DNA of 64,000 nucleotides. It comes from Escherichia phage moskry. How positions within the stretch are numbered: the first letter of the stretch is position 1; every line of letters begins with the position of its first letter. Below, in pieces: positions 3,630-41,398 of this stretch. Location of the stretch: sequence record MN850651.1; one strand, written 5' to 3'. Under the pieces are notes generated by a model. It was not told the DNA's origin. It made no database searches and saw only the letters and a list, made by a program, of their open reading frames with translations. Both the position numbers and the translations under genes were made by a program.

Positions 3630-3932
3630 TTAGATAGATGTAGGCTCTAATTTTATTTTCATGAACTCGGCAAATTGTCTGGCAGTTTTTATGCCTTGTT
3701 CATGACATTCAAATGCATCATCACAGGGGCTATTTTTGTAATGCTTTGCCATATACTTATAGAATTTTTCAGAATTCTCGACATTTTGAATTTCAAACAA
3801 AGTATATACGTTTTTAATCCCTGATTCCATAAAGTTATCAAAATATGGGTCAACATATGCAGTGCCAACAATAGGAGTTGTTGCTGCAAAAAACCCCAGC
3901 ATCGCCATGACAGCTATCGCTCTTAAGGCCAT
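3630..3932 (-). CDS. rI: Antiholin RI (lysis inhibition)
   Basis: 100 aa; ATG with SD AGGAGG; recalled T4 RI similarity (MAL..A..AMLG..., DP.FD.FMESGI, NSPC..FEC); N-terminal signal-anchor. Confidence 0.8.
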   Translation of the reverse strand: MALRAIAVMAMLGFFAATTPIVGTAYVDPYFDNFMESGIKNVYTLFEIQNVENSEKFYKYMAKHYKNSPCDDAFECHEQGIKTARQFAEFMKIKLEPTSI

Positions 3933-3944
3933 ATAGGCCTCCTG

Positions 3945-4157
3945 TTAATTTTGGCCAGTATTTATTTTTCGCCTTTGGACGGCCTTAACATCTGTGAGGT
4001 ATTTTTCCAGCTTGCGCTTGCGTGTATAATCAGCTTTAGAACCAGTTTGACGGATATCCTCGTTTAAATGAGAAATAGAATGTCCTAATTCTCTTCGGAT
4101 TTCATCCAATTGGGTTACAGTAAGATTACGAAGTTGTCTTTCGTTTAATTGCTGCAT
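3945..4157 (-). CDS. rI.1-like small basic protein
   Basis: 70 aa; ATG start; sits between rI and tk as in T4. Confidence 0.5.
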
Positions 4158-4184
4158 ATATACCTCTTGGTTAGATATTAGTAT

Positions 4185-4766
4185 TTATAACAACCCTGTC
4201 AAATCATTCCAATGCTTCCGGCATAATGACACATATCTATCGGTATCACCAATTTCAATTTGACTGCCATCTGTAATTGGAAGTCCGTCTTCCGTGACTC
4301 TAGCTACCATTGTGGCCTTTTTACCACAATGACAGACACCTTTAAGTTCAACAAGCTTATCAGCAATAGCCATTAATGCTTGAGAACCTTCAAATAGATT
4401 ACCTTTAAAATCTGTTCGTAGTCCATATGCCATTACCGGCACATTGTATACGTCAACAATACGACTAAGTTGATACACCTTTTCAGTAGTTAAGAACTGA
4501 GCTTCGTCAACAAATACACAGTGAATATCCTTTTGTGCTGCAGCCCATTTATAGAATTCAAAGATATCCATGTCTTTTGTAATTATATTGGCGTCCTGAC
4601 GAATACCAATACGAGAGACTATTTCACCTTTTGAATCGCGAGTATCAATAGCCGGTTTAAGAACTAATACACCCATGCCACGTTCTTTATAGTTATGTGC
4701 GGCAGTAAGTAATGAAGCAGACTTACCAGCGTTCATAGCGGCATATGTAAAAATTAAACTAGCCAT
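4185..4766 (-). CDS. tk: Thymidine kinase
   Basis: 193 aa; P-loop AMNAGKS; C-terminal CHCG..C zinc motif; same length and position as T4 tk. Confidence 0.9.
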   Translation of the reverse strand: MASLIFTYAAMNAGKSASLLTAAHNYKERGMGVLVLKPAIDTRDSKGEIVSRIGIRQDANIITKDMDIFEFYKWAAAQKDIHCVFVDEAQFLTTEKVYQLSRIVDVYNVPVMAYGLRTDFKGNLFEGSQALMAIADKLVELKGVCHCGKKATMVARVTEDGLPITDGSQIEIGDTDRYVSLCRKHWNDLTGLL

Positions 4767-4956
4767 AAGAGTCCTTAGTTAAATTTTCTAAATATGTTTC
4801 CAAATCATTTTCAGCTTTATCGATAGATTTTACTAATTCGTAATATGTTTCGGCATCTCCATAATCAGAAGATAATTCAAAAGACAAATCCTTTTCTAAA
4901 CTAATAATTTCACCAACTAAAAATAATATTTCGTTCTTTTGTTCGCGAGTAATCAT
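4759..4956 (-). CDS. Small acidic protein (tk.1 position)
   Basis: 65 aa; ATG start; shares an N-terminal REQKNEILFL-type motif with the next ORF. Confidence 0.45.
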   Translation of the reverse strand: MITREQKNEILFLVGEIISLEKDLSFELSSDYGDAETYYELVKSIDKAENDLETYLENLTKDSYG

Positions 4957-5144
4957 AAGGAATTTATATAATCAATGAGTTCTTGTTCTTTATTATCGAA
5001 TTCTTTAGAAAGTTCTTCGTACTCGTTTGCGCTAAAAGGACCGCATTCATTACAAACTTTTTCCAATTCGCTATTTTTATCCATAACTTCGTGGATAAGA
5101 GAAAAGAGTCTGTCTTTTTGTTCTTTACTTAAACTCATAACCAT
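4953..5144 (-). CDS. Small acidic protein, paralog of 4759..4956
   Basis: ORF track starts at TTG 5159; ATG at codon 6 (5144); SKEQKDRLFSLIHEV motif; CNEC pair. Confidence 0.45.
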   Translation of the reverse strand: MVMSLSKEQKDRLFSLIHEVMDKNSELEKVCNECGPFSANEYEELSKEFDNKEQELIDYINSL

Positions 5145-5347
5145 GTCACCTTTAAGCAATATTCTTCTACATGTTGTTTACGGCCTTTCTTATCAATAAA
5201 GGTATATTCAACGAATGTTCCGATGTAGTCTTTATCTACATCATGTGGACTATTAATTGGACATTTAGTACGACAAATGCGTTCCCATTGACGAATAATT
5301 ACTGCCTTATTCTTTGGATCGTATGGATGTGGATAATGTATATTCAT
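5135..5347 (-). CDS. Hypothetical small protein
   Basis: ATG at codon 6 (5347) abuts the stop of the macro-like gene; 70 aa; Cys-x3-Cys pair. Confidence 0.4.
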   Translation of the reverse strand: MNIHYPHPYDPKNKAVIIRQWERICRTKCPINSPHDVDKDYIGTFVEYTFIDKKGRKQHVEEYCLKVTWL

Positions 5348-5841
5348 AATAACGGTTCCCAATCAACAATCACAATTTCTAGTTTAGTAGAATACGTATC
5401 TAAAATCTCTTCGATGACATCCCAGTTTCCACCACCAATACCTGCGCCAATTCTTGGCATATAAATTACAGGCTTTGTTATCTTATTCTTTCCGAATTCA
5501 TTTAATTCTATTATACAATTCATTAAAGCAGAGTACTCAAAATTAGGTCCAGGCTCAAACTGCGTATAAAGATTAAAGCAATAAGCTTTATGGGTCTTAA
5601 AATATTTTTCATAAACCGAATAAGACCCGAGTTTAGACTCGTCTCCATATGCAGTTTGAAGTTTATCGGCTTCCAGAATTTTTGGATAAGCCTTTGCTAA
5701 TTGTCCTGCCACACCGGCGCCCATTGTATGAAAACAATTACACCCATGAGCAATATTATTACCTTTAGAAAACAGGGCGACAATATCGCCCTTGATATAG
5801 TTTTTAATCACTTGCTGCAAGTCCTCTATTATAAGAGTCAA
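5344..5841 (-). CDS. Macro-domain-like protein (possible ADP-ribose binding/hydrolase)
   Basis: Motifs NIAHGCNCFHTMGAGVAGQL and PRIGAGIGGGNW resemble macro-domain Gly-rich loops; start is TTG 5841 or GTG 5811, no ATG. Confidence 0.45.
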   Translation of the reverse strand: MTLIIEDLQQVIKNYIKGDIVALFSKGNNIAHGCNCFHTMGAGVAGQLAKAYPKILEADKLQTAYGDESKLGSYSVYEKYFKTHKAYCFNLYTQFEPGPNFEYSALMNCIIELNEFGKNKITKPVIYMPRIGAGIGGGNWDVIEEILDTYSTKLEIVIVDWEPLL

Positions 5842-6151
5842 CTAGACGGTCTACCATAGAATTGCATGCTGCCTTATCTTTAGGTTCCGCCACCGAGCAT
5901 TCTAATATTTGCCATTTTTTATAGTATCTTTTAATTAAGGTAGACGCCTTGAACCTACTAGACGCCCCATCTTTTTCTCCGTCTTTATACGCATATAACA
6001 ATTTTTGTGAAAAATCTACTTTACACTCTTGACTTTTACCACAATAATCAGACGCCGTTCTGTTTGTATACTCCGTTACATCAGTATATGTAGTATTAGC
6101 AAGAGCGTTAAATGAAACCAAGCCAACTATTAAAGCCAACATTTTGGTCAT
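5804..6151 (-). CDS. Secreted small protein with four Cys (same position and length as T4 vs, identity unverified)
   Basis: 115 aa; ATG start; N-terminal MTKMLALIVGLVSFNALA signal-like segment. Confidence 0.45.
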   Translation of the reverse strand: MTKMLALIVGLVSFNALANTTYTDVTEYTNRTASDYCGKSQECKVDFSQKLLYAYKDGEKDGASSRFKASTLIKRYYKKWQILECSVAEPKDKAACNSMVDRLVDSYNRGLAASD

Positions 6152-6690
6152 TCTTTTATTTCCAGTAGTTTATTTGATTTAAGGTAATTAGCCTTTTCTA
6201 GGACTTCAGAAGCATATTTACTTCCAGCACTCGTCTTCCATCCCGCATTATATGAGGATATAGCTTTTCTTATATCCCCGTTATGTATATTTAACCAATA
6301 AGAAAATTCTATATAAGCCCATCTGGCTGAATTAGACCGCTTAGATAGCATTTTCTTAATTTGGGCATCAGTCATATTGTAACCAAGCTGGTTAATTCTT
6401 GCCCTCATTGTTGGTAGATAATTTTGGAACATTCCATACGCATGGTGACCTTTCTTATCTTTAAGATTAATACCGGCAGATGATTCTTGCCATAGTATTG
6501 CGGCCATTATGTATCCAAGTCCTTTCTTATGCATATTTTCATGCGTTTTAAATTTTCCATCCTTAGAAAACTGTTCCCCAAACTGATAAGCATAATTCAA
6601 GTTATCGAGTTGGACATTACTAAAAGTATGCTCGGAGCTATGTGCTGATAATGAAAGAGCAAATAGACCAGCGAGTAGTGCTTTTCTCAT
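6148..6690 (-). CDS. Periplasmic lytic-transglycosylase (SLT)-like protein
   Basis: 180 aa; signal-like N-terminus; WQESSAG and YGMFQ motifs resemble the SLT catalytic-Glu region. Confidence 0.5.
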   Translation of the reverse strand: MRKALLAGLFALSLSAHSSEHTFSNVQLDNLNYAYQFGEQFSKDGKFKTHENMHKKGLGYIMAAILWQESSAGINLKDKKGHHAYGMFQNYLPTMRARINQLGYNMTDAQIKKMLSKRSNSARWAYIEFSYWLNIHNGDIRKAISSYNAGWKTSAGSKYASEVLEKANYLKSNKLLEIKE

Positions 6691-6698
6691 GTTTACCT

Positions 6699-7157
6699 CT
6701 AGATTTTAATCACTGCTTTAGAAGCTTTTCCTGGTAGTCGTTTACTGTTAATAATAGCCATTCTGCATTGAAGAGTCTTCATTTTGAATGCCGGATTTTC
6801 GCGACAAACTGTAAGTCCCAACCAAAGATTTCCATCAGTTATTTCTAAACGGCCTGGACGGTATTCGACACCTTCGACAAAATCTTCATCAACATCTGGA
6901 CGTGCCGGCATTGATAAAAATTCTGCAACTTCTTTAACATGATTTTTTACTTTACGAAATAATTCAAAAACGTAATTCTCATCTATTTCTCTCTGGATGG
7001 CACGATCTAAGAGATGTTGAGAATACTTGATATGAAAGCCTGGTAGTCCAAGAGACTTTGCAGCATCTTTTATACTGGCATTTATTTTGCGGAACTCCGT
7101 TTCAAAGATTCGACGGAGTTTATTACGGCGGATAAAAACTTCCGAATTGATAGTCAT
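6699..7157 (-). CDS. regB: Site-specific RNA endonuclease RegB
   Basis: 152 aa; ATG start; long identical stretches to recalled T4 RegB (MTIN.EVFIRRNKLRR, YSQHLLDRAIQREID, GVEYRPGRLEITDGNLWLG, LQCRMAIINS.RLPGKASKAVIK). Confidence 0.85.
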   Translation of the reverse strand: MTINSEVFIRRNKLRRIFETEFRKINASIKDAAKSLGLPGFHIKYSQHLLDRAIQREIDENYVFELFRKVKNHVKEVAEFLSMPARPDVDEDFVEGVEYRPGRLEITDGNLWLGLTVCRENPAFKMKTLQCRMAIINSKRLPGKASKAVIKI

Positions 7158-7163
7158 TTTGAT

Positions 7164-7215
7164 TTCTCCTCTAGTTGACAGGTCTATAGTAACACAACTA
7201 GAGGAGATGTAAACT
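7164..7215 (-). promoter_or_regulatory. PeSL-like cassette with SD-containing stem (upstream of regB)
   Basis: Minus reading: GTTTACA, 18 nt, TACTAT; 13-bp arms TCTCCTCTAGTTG/CAACTAGAGGAGA, the 3' arm being the regB SD. Confidence 0.5.
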
Positions 7216-7217
7216 GC

Positions 7218-7427
7218 TTATTCTTGGAATGGTGTGAGTTTTCCAGCTATCGAACAAATTTCTACCATTGCAGGATAAAACTCTTTCACTTGTTCAAGGC
7301 GCTGGACAGCGTACCGCATTTCGCCTTCTTCAAGACAAGCCACCTGGTCATCGAGCAAATATTTATGGTAACCAGTACAGGCTTCACTAATGATACGTTG
7401 GAATTCTTGCAAACTTTCAATTTTCAC
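7218..7427 (-). CDS. Hypothetical small protein
   Basis: 69 aa; apparent GTG start with SD GAGGA 9 nt upstream. Confidence 0.4.
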   Translation of the reverse strand: MKIESLQEFQRIISEACTGYHKYLLDDQVACLEEGEMRYAVQRLEQVKEFYPAMVEICSIAGKLTPFQE

Positions 7428-7693
7428 TAGTATTTTTCCTCAGGTCGAAATACTGCACGACACGCCCACATGCTGGCTTCTTTTAGATGTTGCTTAGCGT
7501 ACTTAAGAGCCTGCACTGCATCCATATCTTCTTTGGTTTGTTGCTCTGTTTCGTTTTCTTTCAAGATATATGCTTCTTCAATCAGAGCATCAAACAACAA
7601 TCCAAGACGGACTTCAGCATCTTTAATAGCGTTCACTTTACCGATTTTATCATCAGTATGCGGCTTGTAGCCTTTGATGTCTTCAATCGACAT
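7427..7693 (-). CDS. Hypothetical protein
   Basis: ORF track starts at TTG 7861; ATG at codon 57 (MSIEDIKG) fits the overlap with the upstream gene; 88 aa. Confidence 0.35.
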   Translation of the reverse strand: MSIEDIKGYKPHTDDKIGKVNAIKDAEVRLGLLFDALIEEAYILKENETEQQTKEDMDAVQALKYAKQHLKEASMWACRAVFRPEEKY

Positions 7694-7907
7694 AAGGAAT
7701 TTCCTCATCAGTGGCAAGGTCATATTCGACCAATTGGATAGGCTCATTAATACCATATCCACGTACAGTGATATCAGTTGTCGGATAGTTTCCAGTAATA
7801 TCACCCATTCTAAATGATTCAATGAATGATTGCTCGCCTGAGCAACTAAACCAGGCGGCAAAACATTTTAAAACATCTTCAGACCCTTCTATAATCAATT
7901 TAGCCAT
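7683..7907 (-). CDS. Hypothetical small protein
   Basis: 74 aa; ATG overlaps the stop of the GrcA-like gene. Confidence 0.4.
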   Translation of the reverse strand: MAKLIIEGSEDVLKCFAAWFSCSGEQSFIESFRMGDITGNYPTTDITVRGYGINEPIQLVEYDLATDEEIPYVD

Positions 7908-8269
7908 TATAGACTCTCAGTAAAGGTACGAGCGATAACGTCGCGCTGCTGTTCTGGAGTCAGAGAGTTAAAGCGAACTGCATAACCGGATACACGAATG
8001 GTCAGCTGCGGATATTTTTCCGGATGCTTAACTGCATCTTCCAGAGTTTCACGACGCAGAACATTAACGTTCAGGTGTTGACCACCTTCAATTTTAACTT
8101 TAGGTTGATGTTCAATTTCAATTTCACGGGCATTCAAACCGTAGAAAATTTCCGGGTCTACAATAGCGTCTTCTTTAAAAGTCTTAGAGACAATAATCCG
8201 GGCTTGAGTACCGTCTTCAAAATAAATAGTGCCTTTGTGTGTGCCTTCAAGAATTTGATATGCTTTCAT
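7907..8269 (-). CDS. grcA: Autonomous glycyl-radical cofactor (GrcA/YfiD)-like protein
   Basis: 120 aa; ATG with SD GAGG; C-terminal about 60 aa ([60 protein letters not shown]) matches recalled E. coli GrcA, including the RVSGYAV glycyl-radical motif. Confidence 0.8.
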
Positions 8270-11561: not shown

Positions 11562-12020
11562 TTATAGGAGGGTGGTGATCACCTTATATAATGATTTGCC
11601 CATTACATATTCCCATTGAGAAGGTTTAATTAAAGCGAATGCATCAAATTCAGGAATCTGTCGTCCGTCTGGGAATGTATGATAGGAATTACAAACACTG
11701 TTTCTGAATTGCTCGTGCTCTACAGGGATGGTATATAGGAACAGATGAATATTCTTATTGTCTGAGTAATGATGTTCGCCTAGGTCTTTCAGGAAGGCAG
11801 GGTCATATTGTGTAAACCCAGTTTCTTCTTCGCATTCACGAATAGCGGCTTCGATAGGAGATTCGCCAGGTTCGACACGGCCTTTAGGAATATCCCACCG
11901 ATGAGCTAATGCACCTTTAGGACGAGAACCAGTTACACGCCCCATGAATAATTCTTTATCTTCGGTAAGGAAAATAATACCGGCTGATAGTTCTTTCACT
12001 TTATTTTTCTTACTCATCAT
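11562..12020 (-). CDS. nudE: Nudix hydrolase
   Basis: 152 aa; Nudix box GRVEPGESPIEAAIRECEEETG; position just upstream of e as in T4. Confidence 0.8.
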   Translation of the reverse strand: MMSKKNKVKELSAGIIFLTEDKELFMGRVTGSRPKGALAHRWDIPKGRVEPGESPIEAAIRECEEETGFTQYDPAFLKDLGEHHYSDNKNIHLFLYTIPVEHEQFRNSVCNSYHTFPDGRQIPEFDAFALIKPSQWEYVMGKSLYKVITTLL

Positions 12021-24408: not shown

Positions 24409-25230
24409 TTAAGATTTCCAAACAGTATTCGCAGAGAAACGTTTTCCTTTTGACATAAACTGCTGAGTAGGTAACATGATTATGTTAGCCCAGTCTTTAG
24501 GAGCTATTTCTGTTATTGTTCCTCTAATGTGGCCTGGCAGGTATGCTTTAATCATTTTGTCAGCACCTTGAAATCCTTTCACCTTGCTCCAGTCTATCTT
24601 CAACTTTGTGTTATTAGTAATAGTAGTTGTGCTAGCATATTGCTTCAGCAATTCTTCAAGAAACTGTTGACGTGCTTTAGGTGGGATATAGTGCAAGTTT
24701 AACCCGTACATCAAATTATGTTTACCTAATCCCAAATAAATAATTAAAGGATATCGGTCCCAATACGGCAGAGTATCTTTATGTTTAGCATCATACACGT
24801 AAGTATAAATTTTGCCTGGCGTAGGCTTGACTACTTTATGACCTTTTACACTTTTCTTAATTGTTTCAACAAACCACTTAGATGATTTGTTGTTTACTGC
24901 TGCGCCTTCATTTCTAATCTTTTCTCGTATTGAACTGCGAAACGAGTTTATCATCAGAAGTTGACGTTCTTGCTTATTGAGTTTATTTTTAGGTTTAGAT
25001 TCAAGCGTTTCAATTTTCTGTGCAGTCTTAATAGATGATGCATATCTAGACATTGCAGATGTAAACGACGAGTATTTTATTCCTTTTGATTCTGCAAATG
25101 CTTTTGCAGTGATTCCTTTCTCTTTAGCTTTCTTGTATTCTAATCCTATCTCAATCCATTTTCTTTCATTCATAGACTGAGCAATCTTAGGGGCTTGTAC
25201 GCCTTCAGATATAATTTGGAATATGCTCAT
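24409..25230 (-). CDS. 2: DNA end protector gp2
   Basis: 273 aa (T4 gp2 is 274); ATG start; basic; gene order. Confidence 0.7.
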
Positions 25231-25232
25231 AA

Positions 25233-25682
25233 TTACCCCTTGTATCCGAGTTTTCTAAGTCCGTCTTCGGTTAGAACTCGAAATTTTATATTTCTCTTTT
25301 CAGCAACAGCCGAGGCAGCTTTCCATTTGTCACAGTTCACAGACCAGGTATATATTTCATTCATATAACGTTTCTTTGCTGCAGTCGTAAGATTTGCAGG
25401 CTTAATAGGTGGTTGAGTTTCTTTCTTTGGTTTTATTTCTACAAAGAACTCTTGACCTGATGCATCTTTCATCCATATGTCCATATAGTATCGACGTTTC
25501 TTACCTTCAGCATTACAAAAATATGGAATTACTGCCGTTTCACTACCCCATGCAATAATTTCTGGATTTTTATCCAACCATTCGAAAAAGAATTTTTCCC
25601 AGTTTGAACGATACGTTATTTTGGTATGGTCTCCACGGTATTTTTTTAAATTTTTTGGGACCCATTTACCAGAGTAGGCCAT
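25233..25682 (-). CDS. 4: Head completion protein gp4
   Basis: ORF track starts at an upstream alternative codon; ATG at codon 49 ([11 protein letters not shown]) follows SD GGAGG; 149 aa (T4 gp4 is 150). Confidence 0.65.
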
Positions 25683-25693
25683 GTTGTCCTCCT

Positions 25694-25701
25694 TATAAAT
25701 A
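25694..25701 (+). promoter_or_regulatory. Late promoter TATAAATA for gene 53
   Basis: Exact TATAAATA 43 nt upstream of the gene 53 start; SD GAAGGAGA follows. Confidence 0.6.
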
Positions 25702-25708
25702 GTATTAT

Positions 25709-25716
25709 TATTTATA
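25709..25716 (-). promoter_or_regulatory. Late promoter TATAAATA for gene 4 (divergent)
   Basis: Plus strand TATTTATA 27 nt upstream of ATG 25682. Confidence 0.55.
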
Positions 25717-25743
25717 CCAATTTCATATTGGAAGGAGACTATC

Positions 25744-26319
25744 TTGTTATTTACATTCTTCGACCCAATAGGATATAGTGCTAAAACAGTTAATAAGAAC
25801 GCACCTACTATTCCTATGACAGACATATTTCGTAACTATAAAGAGTACTTTAAGCGTGTTGCTGCCAATTATAGATTACGTTCTTATTATATTAAAGGCT
25901 CTCCGCGTCCTGAAGAACTAGCAAACATAATTTATGGAAACCCTCAATTATACTGGGTTCTTTTGATGTGTAACGATAACTACGACCCGTATTATGGTTG
26001 GATTACATCTCAGGAAGCAGCGTATCAAGCTTCTATTCAGAAATATGCAAATGCTGGTGGAGACCAAATTCTTTACCATATTAATGAGAACCGTGAGAAA
26101 TTTTACAATTTGGTTTCATATCCAGACGAGCCTTTAGTGTGGTACGATAAAGGTGATGAAGCTCGTAAGTATCCGCAATATAAAGGACCTTTAGCTGCAG
26201 TAGATACTTATGAAGCTGCAGTATTAGATAATGAAAAACTTCGTAAAATAAAAATTGTTGCAAAAGAAGATATAAACTCGTTTATCACAGATTTGATTCG
26301 TGAGATGGAGATTGCATAA
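25744..26319 (+). CDS. 53: Baseplate wedge protein gp53
   Basis: 191 aa; apparent TTG start with SD GAAGGAGA 6 nt upstream; N-terminus MLFTFFDP matches recalled T4 gp53; stop overlaps the gene 5 ATG. Confidence 0.7.
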   Translation: MLFTFFDPIGYSAKTVNKNAPTIPMTDIFRNYKEYFKRVAANYRLRSYYIKGSPRPEELANIIYGNPQLYWVLLMCNDNYDPYYGWITSQEAAYQASIQKYANAGGDQILYHINENREKFYNLVSYPDEPLVWYDKGDEARKYPQYKGPLAAVDTYEAAVLDNEKLRKIKIVAKEDINSFITDLIREMEIA

Positions 26320-28052
26320 TGGAAATGATTAGCAGTAGCCTTAATTGGTTCGTGGGTGTTGTCGAGGACAGAATGGACCCATTAAAACAAGGGCGAGTTC
26401 GAGTGCGAGTAGTTGGACTTCATCCCGCACAGAGAGTACAAGGCGACGTGCAGGGTATTCCTACAGAAAAACTTCCATGGATGACTGTTATTCAACCTAT
26501 TACGTCTGCATCAATGTCAGGTATTGGTGGTTCTGTTACAGGTCCTGTTGAAGGAACTCGAGTATATGGTCATTTCTTAGACAAATGGAAAACAAACGGG
26601 ATTGTACTTGGTACATATGGCGGAATCGTACGTGAAAAGCCTAATAGACTTGAAGGTTTTTCAGACCCGACAGGTCAGTATCCGCGACGTTTAGGTAATG
26701 ATACGAACGTATTAAACCAAGGTGGTGAAGCTGGTTATTATTCGAACTCTAACGTAATTCAAGATAACAACTTAGATTATGGTATAAACCCAGACGATAC
26801 AGATTTAGCAAATATTCCAGAAGATGATGACCCTAATTTTACAATAACGGAAATGTTACGTCGTGATGAAGGTCTTCGTGATAAAGTGTATTGGGACCAT
26901 CTCGGGTATCCTACAGTAGGTATTGGACACCTTATCGTAATGGAAAAGACCCGAGATATGTCTCGAATTAATAAATTGTTATCTGATCAAGTAGGGCGTG
27001 AAGTAACAGGAAATCCGGGAACTATTACATTAGAAGAAGCAACAGCGTTATTTGAGAAGGACCTTGCTAAGATGCAGAAAGACATTCGTTCTAATTCTAA
27101 AGTAGGTCCTGTTTATGCTAAAATGAACAGATCTCGCCAAATGGCATTAGAAAACATGTGCTTCCAAATGGGCGTTGGTGGTGTAGCAAAATTCAATACT
27201 ATGCTTAAAGCAATGGCCGAAGGTGATTGGAAAACTGCATACAAATCTGGGCGCGATTCATTATGGTTCCAACAGACTAAAGGACGCGCTTCACGTGTAA
27301 CAACAATTATTTTAACCGGTAACATGGAATCATACGGTGTTCCTGTTAAAACACCGCCTTCACCAGGAGTTGGTGCCGATTTAGTTACTAGAAATACCGA
27401 TTCAGAAGACCCGGCTGGTCCTCCTGTTCCATTAGATTCACGCATCCTTTTTAAAGAACCGGAATCAAGTTATCGTGGTGAGTATCCATACGTTCATGCT
27501 ATGGAAACAGAAAGTGGTCATATCCAAGAATTTGACGATACTCCAGGTAATGAACGTTATCGTTTAGTTCATCCAACAGGGTCATATGAGGAAGTTTCTC
27601 CGTCTGGGCGACGTACTCGTAAAACTGTAGAAGACCTTTTTGACATCACTAATGGTGATGGGAACTTCTTGATTTCTGGCGATAAGCTTGTTAACGTTGG
27701 TGCTAATGAAATATATTATAACATGGCAGACCGCCTCCATCAAATAGACGGCAATGACACAATCTTTATTCGTGGTAACCAATCTAAAACTGTTGAAGGC
27801 GATGGAACTCTTTACGTTAAGGGTAATATCAAAATAGTTGTTGACGGAAATGCAGATATTCTTGTTAAAGGTGATGCTAAAACTCAGGTCGAAGGGAATC
27901 ATGATTACACCGTCAACGGAAACGTTAAATGGACTGTTAATGGTAATGTTGATATGACTGTTGCCGGGGATTGGGCAGAAACAATGTCTACAATGAGCTC
28001 AGTAGCTTCAGGACAATACACTGTTGACGGATCTCGTATTGATATTGGGTAA
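26319..28052 (+). CDS. 5: Baseplate hub and tail lysozyme gp5
   Basis: 577 aa (T4 gp5 is 575); central lysozyme motif DEGLRDKVYWDHLGYPTVGIGHL; C-terminal V.G.-type beta-helix repeats. Confidence 0.9.
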   Translation: MEMISSSLNWFVGVVEDRMDPLKQGRVRVRVVGLHPAQRVQGDVQGIPTEKLPWMTVIQPITSASMSGIGGSVTGPVEGTRVYGHFLDKWKTNGIVLGTYGGIVREKPNRLEGFSDPTGQYPRRLGNDTNVLNQGGEAGYYSNSNVIQDNNLDYGINPDDTDLANIPEDDDPNFTITEMLRRDEGLRDKVYWDHLGYPTVGIGHLIVMEKTRDMSRINKLLSDQVGREVTGNPGTITLEEATALFEKDLAKMQKDIRSNSKVGPVYAKMNRSRQMALENMCFQMGVGGVAKFNTMLKAMAEGDWKTAYKSGRDSLWFQQTKGRASRVTTIILTGNMESYGVPVKTPPSPGVGADLVTRNTDSEDPAGPPVPLDSRILFKEPESSYRGEYPYVHAMETESGHIQEFDDTPGNERYRLVHPTGSYEEVSPSGRRTRKTVEDLFDITNGDGNFLISGDKLVNVGANEIYYNMADRLHQIDGNDTIFIRGNQSKTVEGDGTLYVKGNIKIVVDGNADILVKGDAKTQVEGNHDYTVNGNVKWTVNGNVDMTVAGDWAETMSTMSSVASGQYTVDGSRIDIG

Positions 28053-28055
28053 TAT

Positions 28056-28571
28056 ATGGCACAAATACTTCCTTTAAATACCGACTTAGGAGAAGACATG
28101 GAAGGGGCGTCTATTGACGTCCTTTTTACTCCACAGTTAGAAACAACCGAAACTTTAGTGTCAATAAATATAACAGATTATGAACCGACACAAGGCATTA
28201 CGGTAGATGGTAATCGTTTATATGGAACATATGAAAGTGTGTTTAGCTTTTCTTCGGATGCATTGAAATACCGATTAAATGATGATTTTGAAACCGCATC
28301 TTCATGGGATGATTTACCAAAAGATGAATCCACACAGTTATATTTGTGGAGAGCTCCTCAGAATCTTCGTAAAGTGTTTAGTTATACGGTTGAAATGATT
28401 TATAACTACCAAGAAGAAAGTTCATCAGGCGGTTCTAGAAGTGACTCTGGTACAGAACCTCCACCGGCTCCAGTACAAAAAACTCTTACTAAGGTTTATA
28501 CAAAAACTATAGTAGGAAATTGGAGCAAATGGGCTCATCAATTACGAAACTATGTTTATGCGAGGCCGTGA
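28056..28571 (+). CDS. 5.1-like hypothetical protein
   Basis: 171 aa; ATG start; position between gene 5 and 5.4 as in T4. Confidence 0.5.
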
Positions 28572-28573
28572 AA

Positions 28574-28867
28574 ATGTCTGGCTTAAGTTACGACAAGTGC
28601 GTTACAACAGGTCATGAAGCATGGCCTCCTACGGTAATTAACGCTTCTCAATCTAAAGTATTCACCGGCGGTATTCCTGTTCTTGTGGCAGGAGACCAAA
28701 TAACACCTCATACAGAAATTAAAAAACCATACGAGACTCATGGAGGTGTTACTGAACCTCGTACATCTAAAGTATATGTCACCGGTAAAAAGGCCGTTCA
28801 AATGGCTGACCCAATTTCATGCGGGGATACTGTTTCTCAGGCCTCGTCAAAAGTCTTTATCAAATAG
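28574..28867 (+). CDS. 5.4: Baseplate spike-tip protein gp5.4-like
   Basis: ATG at codon 19 of the ORF track gives 97 aa, the T4 gp5.4 length; position immediately before gene 6. Confidence 0.6.
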
Positions 28868-28875
28868 GAATTAAA

Positions 28876-30849
28876 ATGGCAAACACTCCTGTAAATTATC
28901 AATTAACCCGAACAGCGAATGCTATTCCCGAGATTTTTATCGGGGGCACATTTGCCGAAATCAAACAGAACATTATCGAATGGCTTAATGGGCAGAATGA
29001 ATTTCTTGATTATGATTTTGAAGGTTCACGCTTAAACGTATTGTGCGACCTTTTAGCATATAACACTCTTTACATCCAACAGTTCAGTAATAGTGCAGTG
29101 TATGAAAGTTTTATGCGTACTGCAAACTTGCGTAGTTCTGTTGTACAAGCGGCTCAAGATAACGGATATCTGCCTTCATCTAAATCAGCAGCACAAACAG
29201 AAATTATGCTCACATGTACGGATGCATTAAATAGAAACTATATCACCATTCCACGTGGCACTCGTTTCTTAGCATACGCTAAAGATACTTCTGTTAACCC
29301 ATATAACTTTGTTTCTACCGAAGATGTCATTGTAGTTAAAGACAAAAATAACCAATATTTTCCACGTCTTCGATTAGCTCAAGGACGTATTGTTCGCACT
29401 GAATTAACATTTGATAGATTAAAACCTATCATTATTCGTGATAAGAATATTGACCGTAATTTGGTTAAGTTGTATGTTGACGGAGCAGAATGGATTAACT
29501 GGACTCGTAAGTCGATGGTTCACGCTGGTTCTACGTCAACAATCTATTATATGCGTGAAACAGTTGATGGGAACACCGAATTTTATTTTGGTGAAGGCGA
29601 AATCTCTATTAACACATCAGAAGGTGCGTTAACATCTAACTATATTGGTGGCCTTAAACCTGTTCAGGGTTCTAAAATCGTAATTGAGTATATTTCTACT
29701 AATGGCGCAGATGCTAACGGTGCTGTAGGATTTTCTTATGCTGATACATTAGCTAATATCACGGTAATCGATATTAACGAGAACCCTAGCAATAACCCGG
29801 ACTTTGTTGGGGCCGACGGTGGTGGTGACCCTGAAGATATTGAACGTATCCGCGAATTAGGCACAATTAAACGCGAAACTCAACAACGTTGTGTAACCGC
29901 TTCCGACTATGACACATTCGTCTCTGAGCGGTTTGGTTCTATTATTCAAGCGGTTCAAACATTCACGGATTCATCTAAACCAGGGTACGCATATATTGCT
30001 GCTAAGCCTAAATCTGGATTGTATTTGACTTCTGTCCAACGCGATGATATCAAAAACTATTTAAATGATTATAACTTAGGGACTATTACACCTGTTGTTA
30101 TTTCGCCTGATTATTTGTTTATCAAAATGAATATCAAAGTTACATACGCGTTGAATAAACTCCAAGAATCAGAACAATATCTTGAAGGGCAGATTATTAA
30201 TAAAATAGACCGATATTATATCGAAGATGTAGAAATTTTTAACTCATCGTTTGCAAAATCTAAAATGCTAACTTATGTCGATGATGCAGATATTTCTATT
30301 ATTGGTTCTTCAGCTACTATTCAAATGGTTCGCGAAGTACAAAACTTCTATAAAACGCCTGAGGCCGGTATTAAATACAATAATCAGATTAAAGATAGAT
30401 CGATGGAATCTAATATATTCTCGTTTGATTCGCACAGACCTAATCCAGAAAATGCAAACGAAACTATTAAATACGGTGTTCGCATAGTATCTTCTGACCG
30501 TAATGACCGTGGCATAGGTCAAGTTATTATTGGTCCATTTGCAGACGGTGATGTTGTTGAAAACGAAAATATACAACCTTATACAGGTAATGATTTTAAT
30601 AAACTTACTGTTACTGACGGACGAAACAAATACTATTCAATTGGTGAAGTGAATTATCCTGCCGATTCGATTTATTGGAACATTGCTAAAATTGACCTCA
30701 CTTCAGACCGTTTTGAAGTTCAAACAATTGAACTTTATTCCGACCCTGCAGATGATATTATTTTTACAAAGGATGGTTCTTTAATCGTATTCGAAAATGA
30801 CTTACGTCCTCAGTACTTAACTATAGATTTGGAGCCTATTTCACAATGA
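28876..30849 (+). CDS. 6: Baseplate wedge protein gp6
   Basis: ATG at codon 20 of the ORF track; 657 aa (T4 gp6 is 660); gene order. Confidence 0.8.
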   Translation: MANTPVNYQLTRTANAIPEIFIGGTFAEIKQNIIEWLNGQNEFLDYDFEGSRLNVLCDLLAYNTLYIQQFSNSAVYESFMRTANLRSSVVQAAQDNGYLPSSKSAAQTEIMLTCTDALNRNYITIPRGTRFLAYAKDTSVNPYNFVSTEDVIVVKDKNNQYFPRLRLAQGRIVRTELTFDRLKPIIIRDKNIDRNLVKLYVDGAEWINWTRKSMVHAGSTSTIYYMRETVDGNTEFYFGEGEISINTSEGALTSNYIGGLKPVQGSKIVIEYISTNGADANGAVGFSYADTLANITVIDINENPSNNPDFVGADGGGDPEDIERIRELGTIKRETQQRCVTASDYDTFVSERFGSIIQAVQTFTDSSKPGYAYIAAKPKSGLYLTSVQRDDIKNYLNDYNLGTITPVVISPDYLFIKMNIKVTYALNKLQESEQYLEGQIINKIDRYYIEDVEIFNSSFAKSKMLTYVDDADISIIGSSATIQMVREVQNFYKTPEAGIKYNNQIKDRSMESNIFSFDSHRPNPENANETIKYGVRIVSSDRNDRGIGQVIIGPFADGDVVENENIQPYTGNDFNKLTVTDGRNKYYSIGEVNYPADSIYWNIAKIDLTSDRFEVQTIELYSDPADDIIFTKDGSLIVFENDLRPQYLTIDLEPISQ

Positions 30850-33800
30850 CAGTAAAAGCGCCAGCAGTCACAAGTCTCAGAATATCCAAGTTGTCCGCTA
30901 ACCAAGTTCAAATACGCTGGGATGACGTTGGTGCTAATTTCTACTATTTCGTAGAAATCGCTGAGACTAAAACGGCAGACGGTGGAATAATTCCCCCTGC
31001 CAGCTACAGATGGATAAATTTAGGATATACTCCTAATAGCAACTGGTTCGAAAATAGCTTAGACCCATTAACTTCTTATATTATTCGTGTATCAACTGCC
31101 GCCGAAGGCTTTGAGAGATCTGATTGGGTATATACCGAAATATTTGAATCATTTCAGACTAACGCGTATACATTTCAACATATGATTGAAATGCAATTGG
31201 CTAACACTTTTATTAGAGAAAAATTTACAAATAACAACATGGCTTATGTCGATTTTAATAACGACACTATAATGGCAGCTCTAATGAATGAATCGTTCCA
31301 ATTTAGCCCTGCTTATGCAGATATTTCATCTATTAAAAATTTCATTATTGGCGAAAATGAGTATCATGAAATTCAAGGTTCGATTCAACAGGTGTGTCAT
31401 GATATAAACCGTGTTTATTTGATGGAATCCGAAGGAATTCTTTATTTGTTTGAACGGTATCAGCCTGTGGTTAAAGTCTCTAATGATAAGGGACAAACCT
31501 GGAAATCGGTTAAATTGTTTAATGACCGTGTAGGGTACCCTGTATCAAGAACAGTGTATTACCAGACAGATTACACCACGTATGTTCTTGGGTACGATAA
31601 ATTATTTTACGGCCGTAAATCAACTGACGTTCGTTGGTCTGCTGATGATGTGAGATTTAGTTCTCAAGATATAACATTTGCTAAAATTGGTGACCAGTTA
31701 AATTTAGGATATGATGTAGAAATATTTGGTAACTATGCATCATTACCTGCTAACGTATCACGTATTGCAGAAGCTATCGTTTGCAATGACGATTATGTAT
31801 ACGTTGCTGCTCGAGATAAAGTTCGTTTTATTAAAACTAGTAATGCCCCTATTGATTCAGACCCGTTATCTCCGACATATTCCGAACGTTTGTTTGAACA
31901 AGAAACATTTAACATCACAGGTAACCCTAAGGCAGTTTGCTATAAAATGGATTCTGTCGGTGGTAAAATATTTGCACTGATTATTGGTGAAGTTGTTAAT
32001 CTTAATGACGACCCGAGGACCACTCCTATTGTCGATTCTGCTGATAAGGGTGTTTACGTTCTAGACCATGATGCTGGCACATTTAAACGTGTGTTTGGTA
32101 ATACTGAAGAAGAACGCCGTCGTATTGAACCTGGGTACACCAGTATGTCTACTGATGGTGTTGAGTTATCTATTTCATCTAGTAATTTTAAATTTTTAGA
32201 ATCAGATATTGTTGATGACCCAAAAACACAAATCAAGTACGGTTTAATCGGTGCTGTTAAATATGAGTATCCTCGCGAATGGTTGGCTGATAAACATTAT
32301 CATATGATGGCATTTATTTCAACTGAAGACTCTCAATGGGAATCGTTCACTCCACAACCGATGGAATACTACGCCGAGCCATTCTTTAGTTATTCTAGAA
32401 AGTCTGGTACTCGATGTTGGATTAATAACTCAGACAAGGCCGTTGTAATTTATTCTGATTTACTTTACACTAAGGTTATTGAGAATCATCCACTTAGTTC
32501 TTCAGACCGTGAAGTTCATGAATATTGGAAAGACGGTGACTGTACAATAGTGATGCCTAACGTAGATTTCACCGGATTTAAAAAATATGCATCCGGCATG
32601 ATTTTCTATAAATCATCAGGTGAGATTATTTCTTATTATGATTTTAGTTATCGTGTTAGAGATAATGTTTCTATAATTTGGAAGCCTACTAATATATTCT
32701 TAACAGCATCGTTACAAAACCAAGAAAAAGATACCACATGGACTCCTGTAGAAGAGAACGGTATTGCAGACCCAGATTTACGACCATTGCTCACTACAAT
32801 GATGCCGGAGTCTTATCTTTTAGATAATACAAACTTCGAAGCATTCTGCGAGGCTTATATTCAGTATCTTTCTGACGGTTATGGGACCCATTATAACAAC
32901 CTTTTGAATCTTATTAAAAATCAGTATCCGCGAGAAGAACATGCGTGGGAATATTTATGGTCCGAGATTTATAAACGAAACATTTACTTAAACGCCGAAA
33001 AACGCGATTTAGTGTCTCGTTTCTTTGAATCAAGAAGTTATGACTTCTATTCAACTAAAGGAACTGAAGCATCATATAAATTCTTGTTTAAAGTGCTTTA
33101 TAACGAAGATGTTGAAATTGAAATTGAATCTAGTTCTGGGACCGAATATGATATCATCATTGAATCTGATTCGCTGACAGAAGATTTGGTCGGACAAACC
33201 ATATACACCGCGACAGGACGTTGTAATGTGACGTATATCGAGAGAAGTTACTCTAAAGGTAAATTACAATGGACTGTAACAATTCACAACCTCTTAGGAC
33301 GTTTAATCCAAGGACAGGAAGTTAAAGCTGAAAGACTCCCTGGTTTTGAAGGTGAAATTGTTCGTGGTATTAAAGGTAAAGAGCTTTCTCAGAACAACAT
33401 CGATTACATAAATCGTGGTAGAGCATACTACGTAATGAAGATTAAATCTAAACTTCCATCATCTCGTTGGAAATCAGACGTATTACGTTTTGTTCATCCG
33501 GTTGGATTTGGATTTATCGCAATTACCCTTCTCACAATGTTTATTAACACCGGATTAACACTTAAACATGTTGAAACCATTATTAATAAATACAAAAACT
33601 ATAAGTGGGATTCTGGATTACCGACTAAATATGCAGACCGAGTGGCTAAATTAGACCCACAAGGAAATGTTGAGTTTGACCCTATTACAGGTAAAGCGAT
33701 ATATGAAATAGGCCCTATGGCTGGTCAAGATTATCCATTACCTGAAGATTATAACGCTGAAAACAATAACTCCATATTTCAAGGTCAACTTCCATCGGAA

Positions 33801-33944
33801 CGACGTAAACTGATGAGCCCATTATTTGATGCGTCCGGAACAACATTCTCTAGATTTAGAGATTTGGTTGAACAGCGGTTAATCGATAATGTAGGAAATC
33901 CAAGAGACCCCGTGAATCCACCACAGGTTAAATTAGATGAATGA
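30846..33944 (+). CDS. 7: Baseplate wedge initiator gp7
   Basis: 1032 aa, identical to the T4 gp7 length; gene order. Confidence 0.85.
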   Translation: MTVKAPAVTSLRISKLSANQVQIRWDDVGANFYYFVEIAETKTADGGIIPPASYRWINLGYTPNSNWFENSLDPLTSYIIRVSTAAEGFERSDWVYTEIFESFQTNAYTFQHMIEMQLANTFIREKFTNNNMAYVDFNNDTIMAALMNESFQFSPAYADISSIKNFIIGENEYHEIQGSIQQVCHDINRVYLMESEGILYLFERYQPVVKVSNDKGQTWKSVKLFNDRVGYPVSRTVYYQTDYTTYVLGYDKLFYGRKSTDVRWSADDVRFSSQDITFAKIGDQLNLGYDVEIFGNYASLPANVSRIAEAIVCNDDYVYVAARDKVRFIKTSNAPIDSDPLSPTYSERLFEQETFNITGNPKAVCYKMDSVGGKIFALIIGEVVNLNDDPRTTPIVDSADKGVYVLDHDAGTFKRVFGNTEEERRRIEPGYTSMSTDGVELSISSSNFKFLESDIVDDPKTQIKYGLIGAVKYEYPREWLADKHYHMMAFISTEDSQWESFTPQPMEYYAEPFFSYSRKSGTRCWINNSDKAVVIYSDLLYTKVIENHPLSSSDREVHEYWKDGDCTIVMPNVDFTGFKKYASGMIFYKSSGEIISYYDFSYRVRDNVSIIWKPTNIFLTASLQNQEKDTTWTPVEENGIADPDLRPLLTTMMPESYLLDNTNFEAFCEAYIQYLSDGYGTHYNNLLNLIKNQYPREEHAWEYLWSEIYKRNIYLNAEKRDLVSRFFESRSYDFYSTKGTEASYKFLFKVLYNEDVEIEIESSSGTEYDIIIESDSLTEDLVGQTIYTATGRCNVTYIERSYSKGKLQWTVTIHNLLGRLIQGQEVKAERLPGFEGEIVRGIKGKELSQNNIDYINRGRAYYVMKIKSKLPSSRWKSDVLRFVHPVGFGFIAITLLTMFINTGLTLKHVETIINKYKNYKWDSGLPTKYADRVAKLDPQGNVEFDPITGKAIYEIGPMAGQDYPLPEDYNAENNNSIFQGQLPSERRKLMSPLFDASGTTFSRFRDLVEQRLIDNVGNPRDPVNPPQVKLDE

Positions 33945-34941
33945 TTCAAGTGTTATCTATCGTGCAATAGTTACATCAAAATTTAGAACAGAGAAAATGC
34001 TGAATTTTTATAATTCAGTTGGGGATGGAGATGATAAGAACTCCATTTATATTACGTTTGGACGTTCAGAGCCTTGGGCGTCAAATGAAAATGAGGTGGG
34101 CTTCGCCCCACCTTATCCTACAGATTCTGTTCTTGGTGTTACTGATATGTGGACCCACATGATGGGTACCGTTAAAGTTTTACCTTCAATGTTAGATTCT
34201 GTTATTCCTAGACGTGATTGGGGAGATGTGCGATATCCAGACCCTTACACGTTTAGAATTAACGATATAGTCGCATGTAATACTGCTCCGTACAACGCGA
34301 CAGAAGTTGGAGCCGGTTGGTTAATTTACCGTTGTTTAGATGTCCCTGACGTAGGGCTCTGTTCAATAGAATCTTTAGATAATAAAGATGAATGTCTTAA
34401 ATTGGGTGGTAAATGGACTCCGTCTGTTCGTTCTATGTCTCCTCCTGAAGGCAGAGGCGATGCTAATGGGGTTATCGAAACCGGTGATGGATATATTTGG
34501 GAATATCTTTATGAGATTCCTGCCGATGTGTCAATTAACCGTTGCACTAATGAATATCTTGTAGTTCCGTGGCCGGAAGAAATTAAAGAAGACCCCACCC
34601 GTTGGGGATATGAAAATAACTTAACTTGGCAACAAGACGACTACGGCTTGATTTATCGTGTTAAAGCTAATACAATGCGGTTTAAAGCATATTTTGATTC
34701 TGTTTATTTCCCTGAGGCAGCTTTGCCTGGTAACAAGGGATTTAGACAGATATCAATTATCGCAAACCCATTAGAAGCTAAGAAAAATCCAAATGACCCT
34801 AATGTTAAAGCAGAAAAGGATTATTACGACCCTAGAGACCTGCAACGTCATTCTGGTGAAATGATTTATATGGAAAACCGACCACCTGTTATTATGGCAA
34901 TGGACCAAACAGAAGAAATTAACATTTTGTTTATGTTTTAA
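33937..34941 (+). CDS. 8: Baseplate wedge protein gp8
   Basis: 334 aa, the T4 gp8 length; gene order. Confidence 0.85.
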   Translation: MNDSSVIYRAIVTSKFRTEKMLNFYNSVGDGDDKNSIYITFGRSEPWASNENEVGFAPPYPTDSVLGVTDMWTHMMGTVKVLPSMLDSVIPRRDWGDVRYPDPYTFRINDIVACNTAPYNATEVGAGWLIYRCLDVPDVGLCSIESLDNKDECLKLGGKWTPSVRSMSPPEGRGDANGVIETGDGYIWEYLYEIPADVSINRCTNEYLVVPWPEEIKEDPTRWGYENNLTWQQDDYGLIYRVKANTMRFKAYFDSVYFPEAALPGNKGFRQISIIANPLEAKKNPNDPNVKAEKDYYDPRDLQRHSGEMIYMENRPPVIMAMDQTEEINILFMF

Positions 34942-34944
34942 TTA

Positions 34945-34968
34945 GGGAGCCTTCGGGCTCCCATTTTT
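34945..34968 (+). terminator. Intrinsic terminator after gene 8
   Basis: Stem GGGAGCC-TTCG-GGCTCCC followed by a T-run. Confidence 0.7.
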
Positions 34969-34973
34969 GTGTC

Positions 34974-34981
34974 TATAAATA
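34974..34981 (+). promoter_or_regulatory. Late promoter TATAAATA for gene 9
   Basis: Exact TATAAATA 33 nt upstream of ATG 35014. Confidence 0.65.
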
Positions 34982-35013
34982 GAATATAATATCGGACAAC
35001 AAAAGGCAGAATT

Positions 35014-35886
35014 ATGGCATTTTTTAAGCAAACTCCTAAACAATTAATCGATACCGGCGAAATTGGTAATGCCTCAACAGGTGATATCTTATTCGACGGT
35101 GGTAATAAAATAAATGACGATATCAACGCTATTTACAATGCATTTGGCGATCAACGTAAAATGGCCGTAGCAGATGGAACCGGACCTACAGGTCAAACTA
35201 TTCATGCCACAGGTTATTATCAAAAAGGAAAGGCGGTCGATTATCAAACTCCTATTAAACCAGGCACTATGCATGATATTGATGCTTCTGATGGTGGTGT
35301 GATTGTTATTATTGACCGTCCTGAATTAGGTGACTCCGTAGAATTCATAAACTCTAATGGGTCTATTTCTGTTAACAATCCTTTAAGTATCCAAGTAACT
35401 GATGGTTCAATTAAAGGTGTTCTTAATAATCTTGTTATTTCCACCCCTTATACCCATGTTGTTCTTCGTTGTGTTGAAATTAATGGGCCGACTTCAGTAT
35501 GGAATTATTCTACTGATAGCATGTTTGGGCAGAAAGAATCTCCTGTCGATGGGACTTGGAGTCTTACAGGAAACACAGTTTCTATTCCTCTGTTTTATCG
35601 CACAGATTATAACATGGCTAAATTGCTTGTTACATGTCAATCCGCTGACGGTAGAAAAATAAAAACATGTGAAATAAATATTCTAATAGATACAATTAAC
35701 TCAGAAGTTCTTTCTACCGAATTTGCAGTAATGCGAGTTGGTAATGTAGATGAAACCGACGAGATTGCTAATATTAGCTTTAGTATTATTAACAACTTTG
35801 CTACTATGACGATTACATCCGATATTATTGGATTACGTTCGGCAGTTAAAATTATCTCAACTCAGAAAATTGGGGTCGCTCAATAA
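35014..35886 (+). CDS. 9: Baseplate wedge / long tail fibre socket gp9
   Basis: 290 aa (T4 gp9 is 288); gene order. Confidence 0.8.
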   Translation: MAFFKQTPKQLIDTGEIGNASTGDILFDGGNKINDDINAIYNAFGDQRKMAVADGTGPTGQTIHATGYYQKGKAVDYQTPIKPGTMHDIDASDGGVIVIIDRPELGDSVEFINSNGSISVNNPLSIQVTDGSIKGVLNNLVISTPYTHVVLRCVEINGPTSVWNYSTDSMFGQKESPVDGTWSLTGNTVSIPLFYRTDYNMAKLLVTCQSADGRKIKTCEINILIDTINSEVLSTEFAVMRVGNVDETDEIANISFSIINNFATMTITSDIIGLRSAVKIISTQKIGVAQ

Positions 35887-37691: not shown

Positions 37692-38350
37692 TGACTGTAC
37701 TTAATACAAAGGCGGGAGTTATTTCCCGTCATGCTGATTTTTTGAATTACAGAAAAAATCCAGCTCAAATTGATGTTTTAAACAACCAAGCTGTAGGTTC
37801 CGTGACTATTTCTCAGTTAGCTCGCGGTTTTTATGATGCTAACGTAGAATCTGCAATAAATGATGTCCATAATATGGCACGAGCTGATATTGGTACTGTT
37901 GTCACAAACACTTCAGGCGTATCGCCTGAAGGTACAGCACAAGTTGATTATTGGACTTTTTCTGGTGATGTTCTCGACGATACTTTGACCACTGGAACGC
38001 CAGTCGTTATTAACGTATTTGGACTTGCTGTTAAAGCAACAATCGGTATGACTGATAACGAATTAACGGCACAAGTTCGTATAGCTTTACAAGAAGCCAT
38101 TGCTAATCAAATCGCTATTTCTTCTTATAAAGACCATCCATCCGAAGGTAATAAACTTCAGGTGACATATTTAGATAACCAACGTCATGTGTTGCCAACA
38201 TATGCTTCGTTTGGTGTAACAATTTCGCAAGAAATTTTGTCTGAAGCAAAATCCGGATACGGAACATGGAATTTATTAGGTGCCCAAACGGTTACTCTTG
38301 ATAACCATGATACTCCTACCGTTTTCTACCACTTTGTGAGAGCCTCATGA
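37691..38350 (+). CDS. 11: Baseplate wedge and tail pin gp11
   Basis: ATG at codon 7 of the ORF track gives 219 aa, the T4 gp11 length; stop of gene 10 overlaps the ATG. Confidence 0.8.
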
Positions 38351-41378: not shown

Positions 41379-41384
41379 TGAAAA

Positions 41385-41398
41385 GGGCCTTCGGGCCC
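41385..41398 (+). terminator. Stem-loop after wac (weak terminator)
   Basis: GGGCC-TTCG-GGCCC hairpin; no T-run. Confidence 0.35.

Follow-up and report, generated by a model that had tools for sequence, protein, structure and literature searches.

A minus-strand open reading frame of Escherichia phage moskry (MN850651.1), located in the 64,000-nucleotide stretch that was analysed as a whole (the window), raises three connected questions: whether its two glycine-rich stretches belong to a macro domain, where its translation begins, and which ADP-ribosylated compound its product would act on. The longest form of the frame runs from a TTG at 5841 to a TGA at 5344 and carries both of the motifs, NIAHGCNCFHTMGAGVAGQL and PRIGAGIGGGNW, that had suggested a macro-domain-like protein in the original prediction. 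This assignment is borne out by Pfam, a profile search, AlphaFold2 and Foldseek, and the two stretches correspond to the two ADP-ribose-binding loops. The protein exceeds the gathering cut-off of the Pfam Macro profile PF01661 (28.2 bits for a cut-off of 22, E=1.9e-6) and covers positions 2–117 of its 118. Among the NCBIfam profiles the sole match is DarG, at 33 bits with respect to a cut-off of 250 and over positions 4–146 of 338. A family profile built from 113 relatives and run against the PDB retrieved BT1257 (3e-17) and TARG1 (4e-17), with SCO6735, Poa1p and the DarG macrodomains comprised in the same range of 3e-17 to 2e-11; MacroD/nsp3-type domains reach merely ~1e-5.

The AlphaFold2 model, calculated with the family alignment as input, presents alternating strands and helices (pLDDT 95.9, pTM 0.91), and its comparison with solved structures predicts the three-layer α/β/α fold of macro domains, with a mixed sheet at the centre. 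TARG1 is the first Foldseek match (3.7e-10), followed by Poa1p, BT1257 and DarG (2.4e-7); the matches listed are macro domains or designed serine hydrolases of the OSH55 family, all with a probability of 1.00. We are confident that the product is a macro domain, in this case a stand-alone one of 155 amino acids. A relative is present in 2845 of the 50,697 phage records (~5–6%); the carriers include T4-like phages as well as numerous other large phages infecting enterobacteria, Pseudomonas, Vibrio, Acinetobacter and Aeromonas. One relative (P0103, locus L056) is filed under a "Nitrospirae MAG" (GCA_015233485.1, JADFXO010000349.1). Its 4.5-kb contig encodes an SLT-domain protein like vs.1 and no DarT, a phage-like context that speaks against a bacterial origin of this sequence; the contig was probably binned into the bacterial MAG from a phage.

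Table 1. Features of the tk.4 region in the window, with the basis of each assignment.
Feature	Coordinates	Strand	Basis or remark
tk.4 / adfM orthologue, coding sequence	5344..5811	minus	ORF; same extent annotated in HX01 and PNJ-6; 85% amino acid identity to T4 Tk.4
GTG start codon	5809..5811	minus	Aligns with the ATG of T4 tk.4 and of most relatives
30-nt in-frame extension (TTG 5841, TTG 5820)	5812..5841	minus	3' end of vs, outside tk.4
Shine-Dalgarno-like GAGGA	5822..5826	minus	10 nt upstream of GTG; read from sequence
vs TAA stop	5804..5806	minus	Overlapped by tk.4 codons 2-3 (GTGATTAA)
Loop 1 of the ADP-ribose pocket, residues 22-35, HGCNCFHTMGAGVA	5707..5748	minus	Conservation in 118 and 113 family members
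Invariant Asp49	5665..5667	minus	Subfamily-specific; Tyr or absent in DarG, TARG1 and BT1257
Strand-end motif N80-L-Y82-T-Q84	5560..5574	minus	MAFFT and HMM alignments agree
Loop 2, diphosphate-binding, Gly-rich, residues 119-130, PRIGAGIGGGNW	5422..5457	minus	MAFFT and HMM alignments
tk.3 ATG start	5345..5347	minus	ATGA overlap with the tk.4 TGA stop; annotated alike in HX01 and T4
Three small ORFs between thymidine kinase and the tk.4 orthologue		minus	ORF list
Thymidine kinase	4185-4766	minus	ORF list and annotation of relatives
vs (valyl-tRNA-synthetase modifier Vs), 115 aa, upstream of the tk.4 orthologue		minus	PHROG 1256, 1.8e-35
vs.1-like protein, 180 aa		minus	ORF list and annotation of relatives
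152-aa ORF		minus	Position of endoribonuclease RegB in the HX01 and T4 annotation

The minus-strand genes around this frame form a head-to-tail string in which stops and starts overlap, tightly so throughout the regB-to-tk stretch (Table 1), and the order rI-rI.1-tk-tk.1-tk.2-tk.3-tk.4-vs-vs.1-regB is identical in the window, HX01, PNJ-6 and T4. The region 5100–6200 is ~98% identical to Mosigvirus phages, e.g. HX01 and PNJ-6, and, judged by these sequence comparisons, the window genome is a Mosigvirus relative (RB69/HX01-like), T4 proper being excluded. With respect to the closest complete genome, OR844765.1, the window is a mosaic with identities of 82–98%, most blocks lying at 94–98%; the blocks 25228–39065 and 39955–42349 are merely ~83–84% identical, which suggests the replacement of these segments by recombination. 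The tk.3 frame (5135–5362, minus strand) begins in the mechanical ORF list at a TTG five codons upstream of its annotated start, ATG 5347, which is also the start that agrees with the overlap.

The same comparisons identify the gene as the Mosigvirus orthologue of T4 tk.4, the gene of AdfM (anti-DarT factor Macrodomain; NP_049723), which also encodes 155 residues and occupies the same site between vs and tk.3. The two proteins align over 155/155 residues without gaps (85% identity), whereas the nucleotide identity is 81%; a dS of 1.35 and a dN/dS of 0.064 indicate a gene under purifying selection. The gene was therefore already known, with a role assigned recently (2025): its orthologues were matched to the A1pp/macro domain by Nolan et al. 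in 2006 (PMC1524935), the homologous 155-aa coding sequences in the HX01 and PNJ-6 records are routinely labelled "phosphatase" or "macro domain protein", the T4 RefSeq record on tk.4 reads "phosphatase; contains A1pp phosphatase motif", and the anti-DarTG2 role dates from 2025 (see below).

The start of translation can be fixed by comparison with the relatives. The original prediction named TTG 5841 and GTG 5811 as the only starts in frame, and took the lack of an ATG as a sign of translational coupling or of a non-canonical start. Both codons are indeed in frame and there is no ATG start, but the list omitted a second TTG at 5818–5820, as well as an internal ATG at codon 30 (5722–5724), from which the domain would be truncated. 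In T4 the codon that is GTG here is ATG, with an in-frame TAG immediately 5' of it; in two loci 97% identical to the window (L004 and L005) the GTG is kept and an in-frame TAG lies two codons upstream. Stop codons thus break the 30-nt extension both in T4 and in close relatives. In addition, the N-termini of the family follow the pattern M-I-x-x-Y/T-I-K-G-D and the residues upstream of M1 are unconserved, so that TTG 5841 and TTG 5820 are both ruled out as starts. Therefore the coding sequence extends over 5344–5811, that is 155 codons and the TGA stop; these coordinates were verified, and RefSeq gives the gene the same extent in close relatives. At this position nearly all of the more distant relatives carry ATG, GTG being found also in one lineage (L013) of 55% identity.

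The gene, from its GTG, shares 8 nt with the end of vs (GTGATTAA), whereas in T4 the tk.4 ATG forms part of an ATGA common to both genes. The 8-nt overlap, together with that of the tk.4 TGA with the ATG of tk.3, makes translational coupling plausible, so that this part of the original suggestion stands; the non-ATG start is in itself unremarkable, T4 and most relatives having ATG at that codon. A GAGGA is also found in T4, 11 nt upstream of its ATG, but its conservation is no independent evidence because it lies inside vs codons as well. A promoter of its own was rejected for tk.4: 14 sigma-70-like matches were counted in 3800–8000 as against 15.2 in shuffles, none of them convincing upstream of the GTG, and an Rfam scan of 4000–8000 at E<=1 found no RNA family.

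A strong terminator-like hairpin was seen at 5774–5792 (minus strand), within tk.4 codons 7–13 and 19 nt after the GTG start. It consists of AGGGCGAT-ATT-GTCGCCCT followed by GTTTTCT, with a dG of ~-13 kcal/mol. The hairpin is identical in T4 (L003), although elsewhere in the gene 41% of the codons for the same amino acid differ synonymously (P ~0.03–0.04). In distant relatives with other residues at this place (GDLISL; L028 and L030) it is kept through apparent compensatory changes (GGC:GCC to GGA:TCC), whereas many intermediate lineages are without it. Between vs and tk.4 this element might act as an attenuator or provide an mRNA-stabilising end, or else it could be an accident of codon usage.

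A closer inspection of the predicted pocket showed a nearly invariant set of polar residues. In loop 1, residues H22, N25, C26, G33 and A35 are 99–100% conserved in the 118 and 113 family members. N25, itself 99% conserved in the family, aligns with N22 of DarG and N23 of PhiKZ AdfM, so that the active-site asparagine of the DarG type is present. The stretches M30-G-A-G33 and P119-x-I-G-x-G-x-G/A-G-G-x-W130 are 90–100% conserved in 113–118 relatives, and N80, Y82 and Q84, at the end of a strand, are invariant across 113–118 sequences. Three independent alignments (MAFFT and HMM) place Q84 at the catalytic lysine position, occupied by K80 in DarG (of both T. aquaticus and M. tuberculosis), K78 in PhiKZ AdfM and K84, the known catalytic lysine, in TARG1. 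The active-site lysine of the DarG type is thus replaced by an invariant glutamine. Of the TARG1/OARD1 dyad Lys84/Asp125 neither member is found; Q84 and G126 align instead, and the position of G126, in loop 2, is occupied by Gly or Ala within the family. The DarG sequences used as reference were verified against PDB entries 5M3I and 5M31, and that of TARG1 against 2LGR. Likewise, the C-terminal DarT-binding domain and an adjacent darT are absent, the 155-aa protein consisting of the macro domain only and its neighbours being vs and tk.3. The protein was assigned to neither the DarG nor the TARG1 catalytic type, the lysine (and the TARG1 aspartate) being absent; with an invariant glutamine in place of the catalytic lysine, it must use another chemistry than DarG and TARG1 do. 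With the gene already known, what remains of value here is this catalytic site, that of a Gln-type subfamily lacking the lysine considered essential in DarG-type enzymes.

Which compound is bound in this pocket is best approached from T4. DarT2 modifies thymidine in single-stranded DNA at TNTC motifs and DarG-type macro domains reverse the modification (PMC11825919, PMC13309987). T4 devoid of both adfA and adfN withstands DarTG2 all the same, and a further factor was predicted (Johannesman et al. 2025, PMC11825919). In a HIDEN-SEQ transposon screen on a DarTG2 host, T4 tk.4 was the single significant match, and a clean tk.4 knockout was sensitised to DarTG2, upon which the gene was renamed adfM, according to a preprint (bioRxiv 10.1101/2025.11.20.689424); these genetics fit the earlier adfA/adfN result (PMC11825919). 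Of an enzymatic step that takes ADP-ribose off the DNA, the authors of the preprint say only that it "seems likely" (bioRxiv 10.1101/2025.11.20.689424). The macro domain gp104 of PhiKZ removes DarT2 marks from DNA in vitro and the mutation of its N23 lowers the activity; in this group of enzymes K80 of DarG and K78 of PhiKZ AdfM are active-site lysines (PMC13309987).

Taken with these data, the conservation of N25 and of both glycine-rich loops makes an orphan eraser of DarT2 marks the best explanation, and the tk.4 orthologue is probably a macro-domain hydrolase that serves as a counter-defence against host DarTG2. In this scenario, the DarT2 toxin would ADP-ribosylate thymidines in the single-stranded phage DNA upon infection, blocking replication; the phage protein would then bind the ADP-ribose in the cleft between loop 1 (HGCNCFHTMGAGVA) and loop 2 (PRIGAGIGGGNW) and remove the group placed on the ribose C1'', restoring the DNA. 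The window orthologue would be expected to act against DarTG2 as T4 tk.4 does, and its predicted enzymatic substrate would be ADP-ribosyl-thymidine. The phenotype itself was obtained in T4 only, in one preprint (bioRxiv 10.1101/2025.11.20.689424). Two observations speak against this reading: the glutamine at the catalytic lysine position, with Gly or Ala in place of the TARG1 D125, and the much closer relationship to an enzyme of another function, the Adpp protein of Vibrio phage Gary, than to DarG or PhiKZ AdfM. With the family profile, Adpp scores 119 bits (38% identity to the tk.4 product), DarG 47–54 bits (23% identity) and PhiKZ AdfM 35 bits.

This last relationship leads to the main alternative, in which the tk.4 product would primarily be an ADP-ribose-1''-phosphate (ADPR-1P) phosphatase similar to Adpp and Poa1p, as in the old "A1pp phosphatase" label, converting to ADP-ribose the ADPR-1P produced by RES-type NAD+ phosphorolysis in aRES defence. 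Gary Adpp, the closest biochemically characterised relative (E=7e-24), turns ADPR-1P into ADPR in vitro and is required if NARP1-AP is to overcome aRES (bioRxiv 10.64898/2026.01.28.702374). The Adpp signature (H-x-C/A-N-C, A-D, K-L-G, N-x-Y-G/T-Q and I-G-x-G-x-x-G-G-D/N-W) is present in full in the tk.4 product: H22, N25, C26, D49, K60, N80, Y82, Q84 and loop 2 are common to both proteins and T83 alone differs, being Gly in Adpp (sequence from Tables S1 and S4 of bioRxiv 10.64898/2026.01.28.702374). Moreover, in a rough NJ tree the macro protein of Acinetobacter phage phiAbaA1, which is associated with NARP1, branches within the Tk.4 family, and the HxCNC motif is common with yeast Poa1p, one of the top structural matches. 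The genetic context is a different one, however. Homologues of Adps, Namat and Nampt were not found by tblastn in the window or in the complete OR844765.1 genome (best E 0.12, nothing below E=0.1) with Gary and SPbetaL1 Adps and Namat and KVP40 Nampt and Nmnat as queries, whereas Adpp, as positive control, matched tk.4 at 4e-20. A weak match (E=0.23) of the C-terminal part of KVP40 Nmnat was seen at 11751–11918 (minus strand), perhaps the region of the T4 nudE/e.1 Nudix hydrolase, as guessed from the T4 gene order; it is no significant match to an NAD+ salvage gene. With none of these genes in the window or in OR844765.1, the pathway in which dephosphorylating ADPR-1P would be of use is missing, a component of the NARP1-AP pathway is ruled out, and the neighbours of tk.4 are vs and tk.3 instead of NARP1 genes. 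Since the context for rebuilding NAD+ is absent here, and the sole phenotype reported for T4 tk.4 in the preprint is DarTG2 sensitivity (bioRxiv 10.1101/2025.11.20.689424), the anti-DarT2 role stays in first place and a primarily phosphatase function is considered unlikely; such an activity could nevertheless exist alongside the anti-DarT2 role.

The loss of the Lys/Asp dyad would also agree with a protein that only binds ADP-ribose, or blocks DarT2 by binding, and the automatic JGI annotation of relatives as "O-acetyl-ADP-ribose deacetylase", together with the activities given in the PDB names of the related TARG1 and Poa1p, with a general O-acyl-ADP-ribose deacylase devoid of a defence target. 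All three appear very improbable. The polar residues of the pocket (H22, N25, C26, D49, N80, Y82 and Q84) are invariant, a pattern typical of an enzyme rather than of a reader; Adpp, its nearest relative, has catalytic activity (bioRxiv 10.64898/2026.01.28.702374); and in the 155 residues there is no counterpart of the C-terminal domain by which DarG binds DarT (PMC11825919). A further possibility, put forward in the original prediction, was a partner of the phage's own ADP-ribosyltransferases, which would reverse or read the marks that Alt, ModA and ModB leave on host proteins or RNA. The one argument for it is that the macro domain and these transferases co-occur in T-even genomes. Alt, ModA and ModB are arginine-specific R-S-E transferases, acting for example on R265 of RNA polymerase alpha and R84 of MazF. 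Arginine-linked ADP-ribose is cleaved by ARH/DraG-type enzymes. The substrates of macro-domain hydrolases are ADP-ribose in ester, phosphate or thymidine linkage, and no macro domain is known to cleave the arginine linkage. Furthermore, tk.4 lies in the tk-vs cluster and not beside alt or modA/modB, and the T4 phenotype is described with DarTG2 alone, no other condition being flagged in the consulted passages of the preprint (bioRxiv 10.1101/2025.11.20.689424). The proposal thus finds no support, and an Alt/Mod partner, which has hardly any probability left, was discarded because of the substrate chemistry and the T4 genetics. The eraser would counter a host weapon that ADP-ribosylates the phage DNA rather than the work of the phage's Alt/Mod enzymes.

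The position of the tk.4 product between an anti-DarT2 factor and Adpp maybe admits a broader view, in which the Gln-type macro domains of the Tk.4/Adpp kind would be one family that removes whatever sits on the ribose C1'' without the lysine of DarG and TARG1. We put this forward only tentatively and hold it to be rather doubtful. If it were true, one protein would erase DarT2 marks from thymidine in DNA and also dephosphorylate ADPR-1''-phosphate; a widespread phage gene (~5–6% of phage records) would act on the products of two NAD+-based defences; and its catalytic mechanism would be one not yet described for DNA de-ADP-ribosylation. The T4 adfM preprint and the Adpp preprint (bioRxiv 10.64898/2026.01.28.702374) are each silent on the function treated in the other. 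The name AdfM at present covers two different macro sub-lineages, PhiKZ gp104 being Lys-type and grouped with DarG, and T4 Tk.4 being Gln-type and grouped with Adpp.

Compared with the known systems, the window protein is closest to T4 Tk.4, with which it has the signature residues in common; at residue 127, in loop 2, the Lys of T4 Tk.4 is Gly in the window protein. Gary Adpp (KNV71_gp137) belongs to the same Gln-type subfamily and is also a stand-alone protein, of 158 residues. It is encoded between Adps and Namat in the NARP1 operon, genes of a kind that neither the window nor OR844765.1 contains, and its demonstrated substrate is a small molecule, whereas the phenotype of the T4 orthologue concerns the ADP-ribosylation of DNA. 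DarG (DarG2; PDB 5M31/5M3E, 5M3I and 7OMU) displays the same fold (Foldseek 2.4e-7 to 6.5e-7, TM ~0.75). Both DarG and PhiKZ gp104 have in common with the tk.4 product the conserved asparagine, the glycine-rich loops and the proposed target, the product of DarT2; nevertheless, their identity to it is only 20–23%, they carry the catalytic lysine (K80/K78) where Gln84 is found here, and PhiKZ AdfM clusters with DarG and not with Tk.4. The best structural and profile matches are TARG1/OARD1 (PDB 4J5R/4J5S), Poa1p (6LFQ–6LFU) and BT1257 (2FG1/2AFC), all three of which have His22. The residues of the TARG1 dyad K84/D125 are Q84 and G126 in the tk.4 product, and Poa1p has Ser at position 84. BT1257, a protein of unknown function, presents a Gln at this position and a PRIGCGLAGG loop, as the tk.4 product does. 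Compared with these three proteins, the phage subfamily alone has D49, K60 and Y82.
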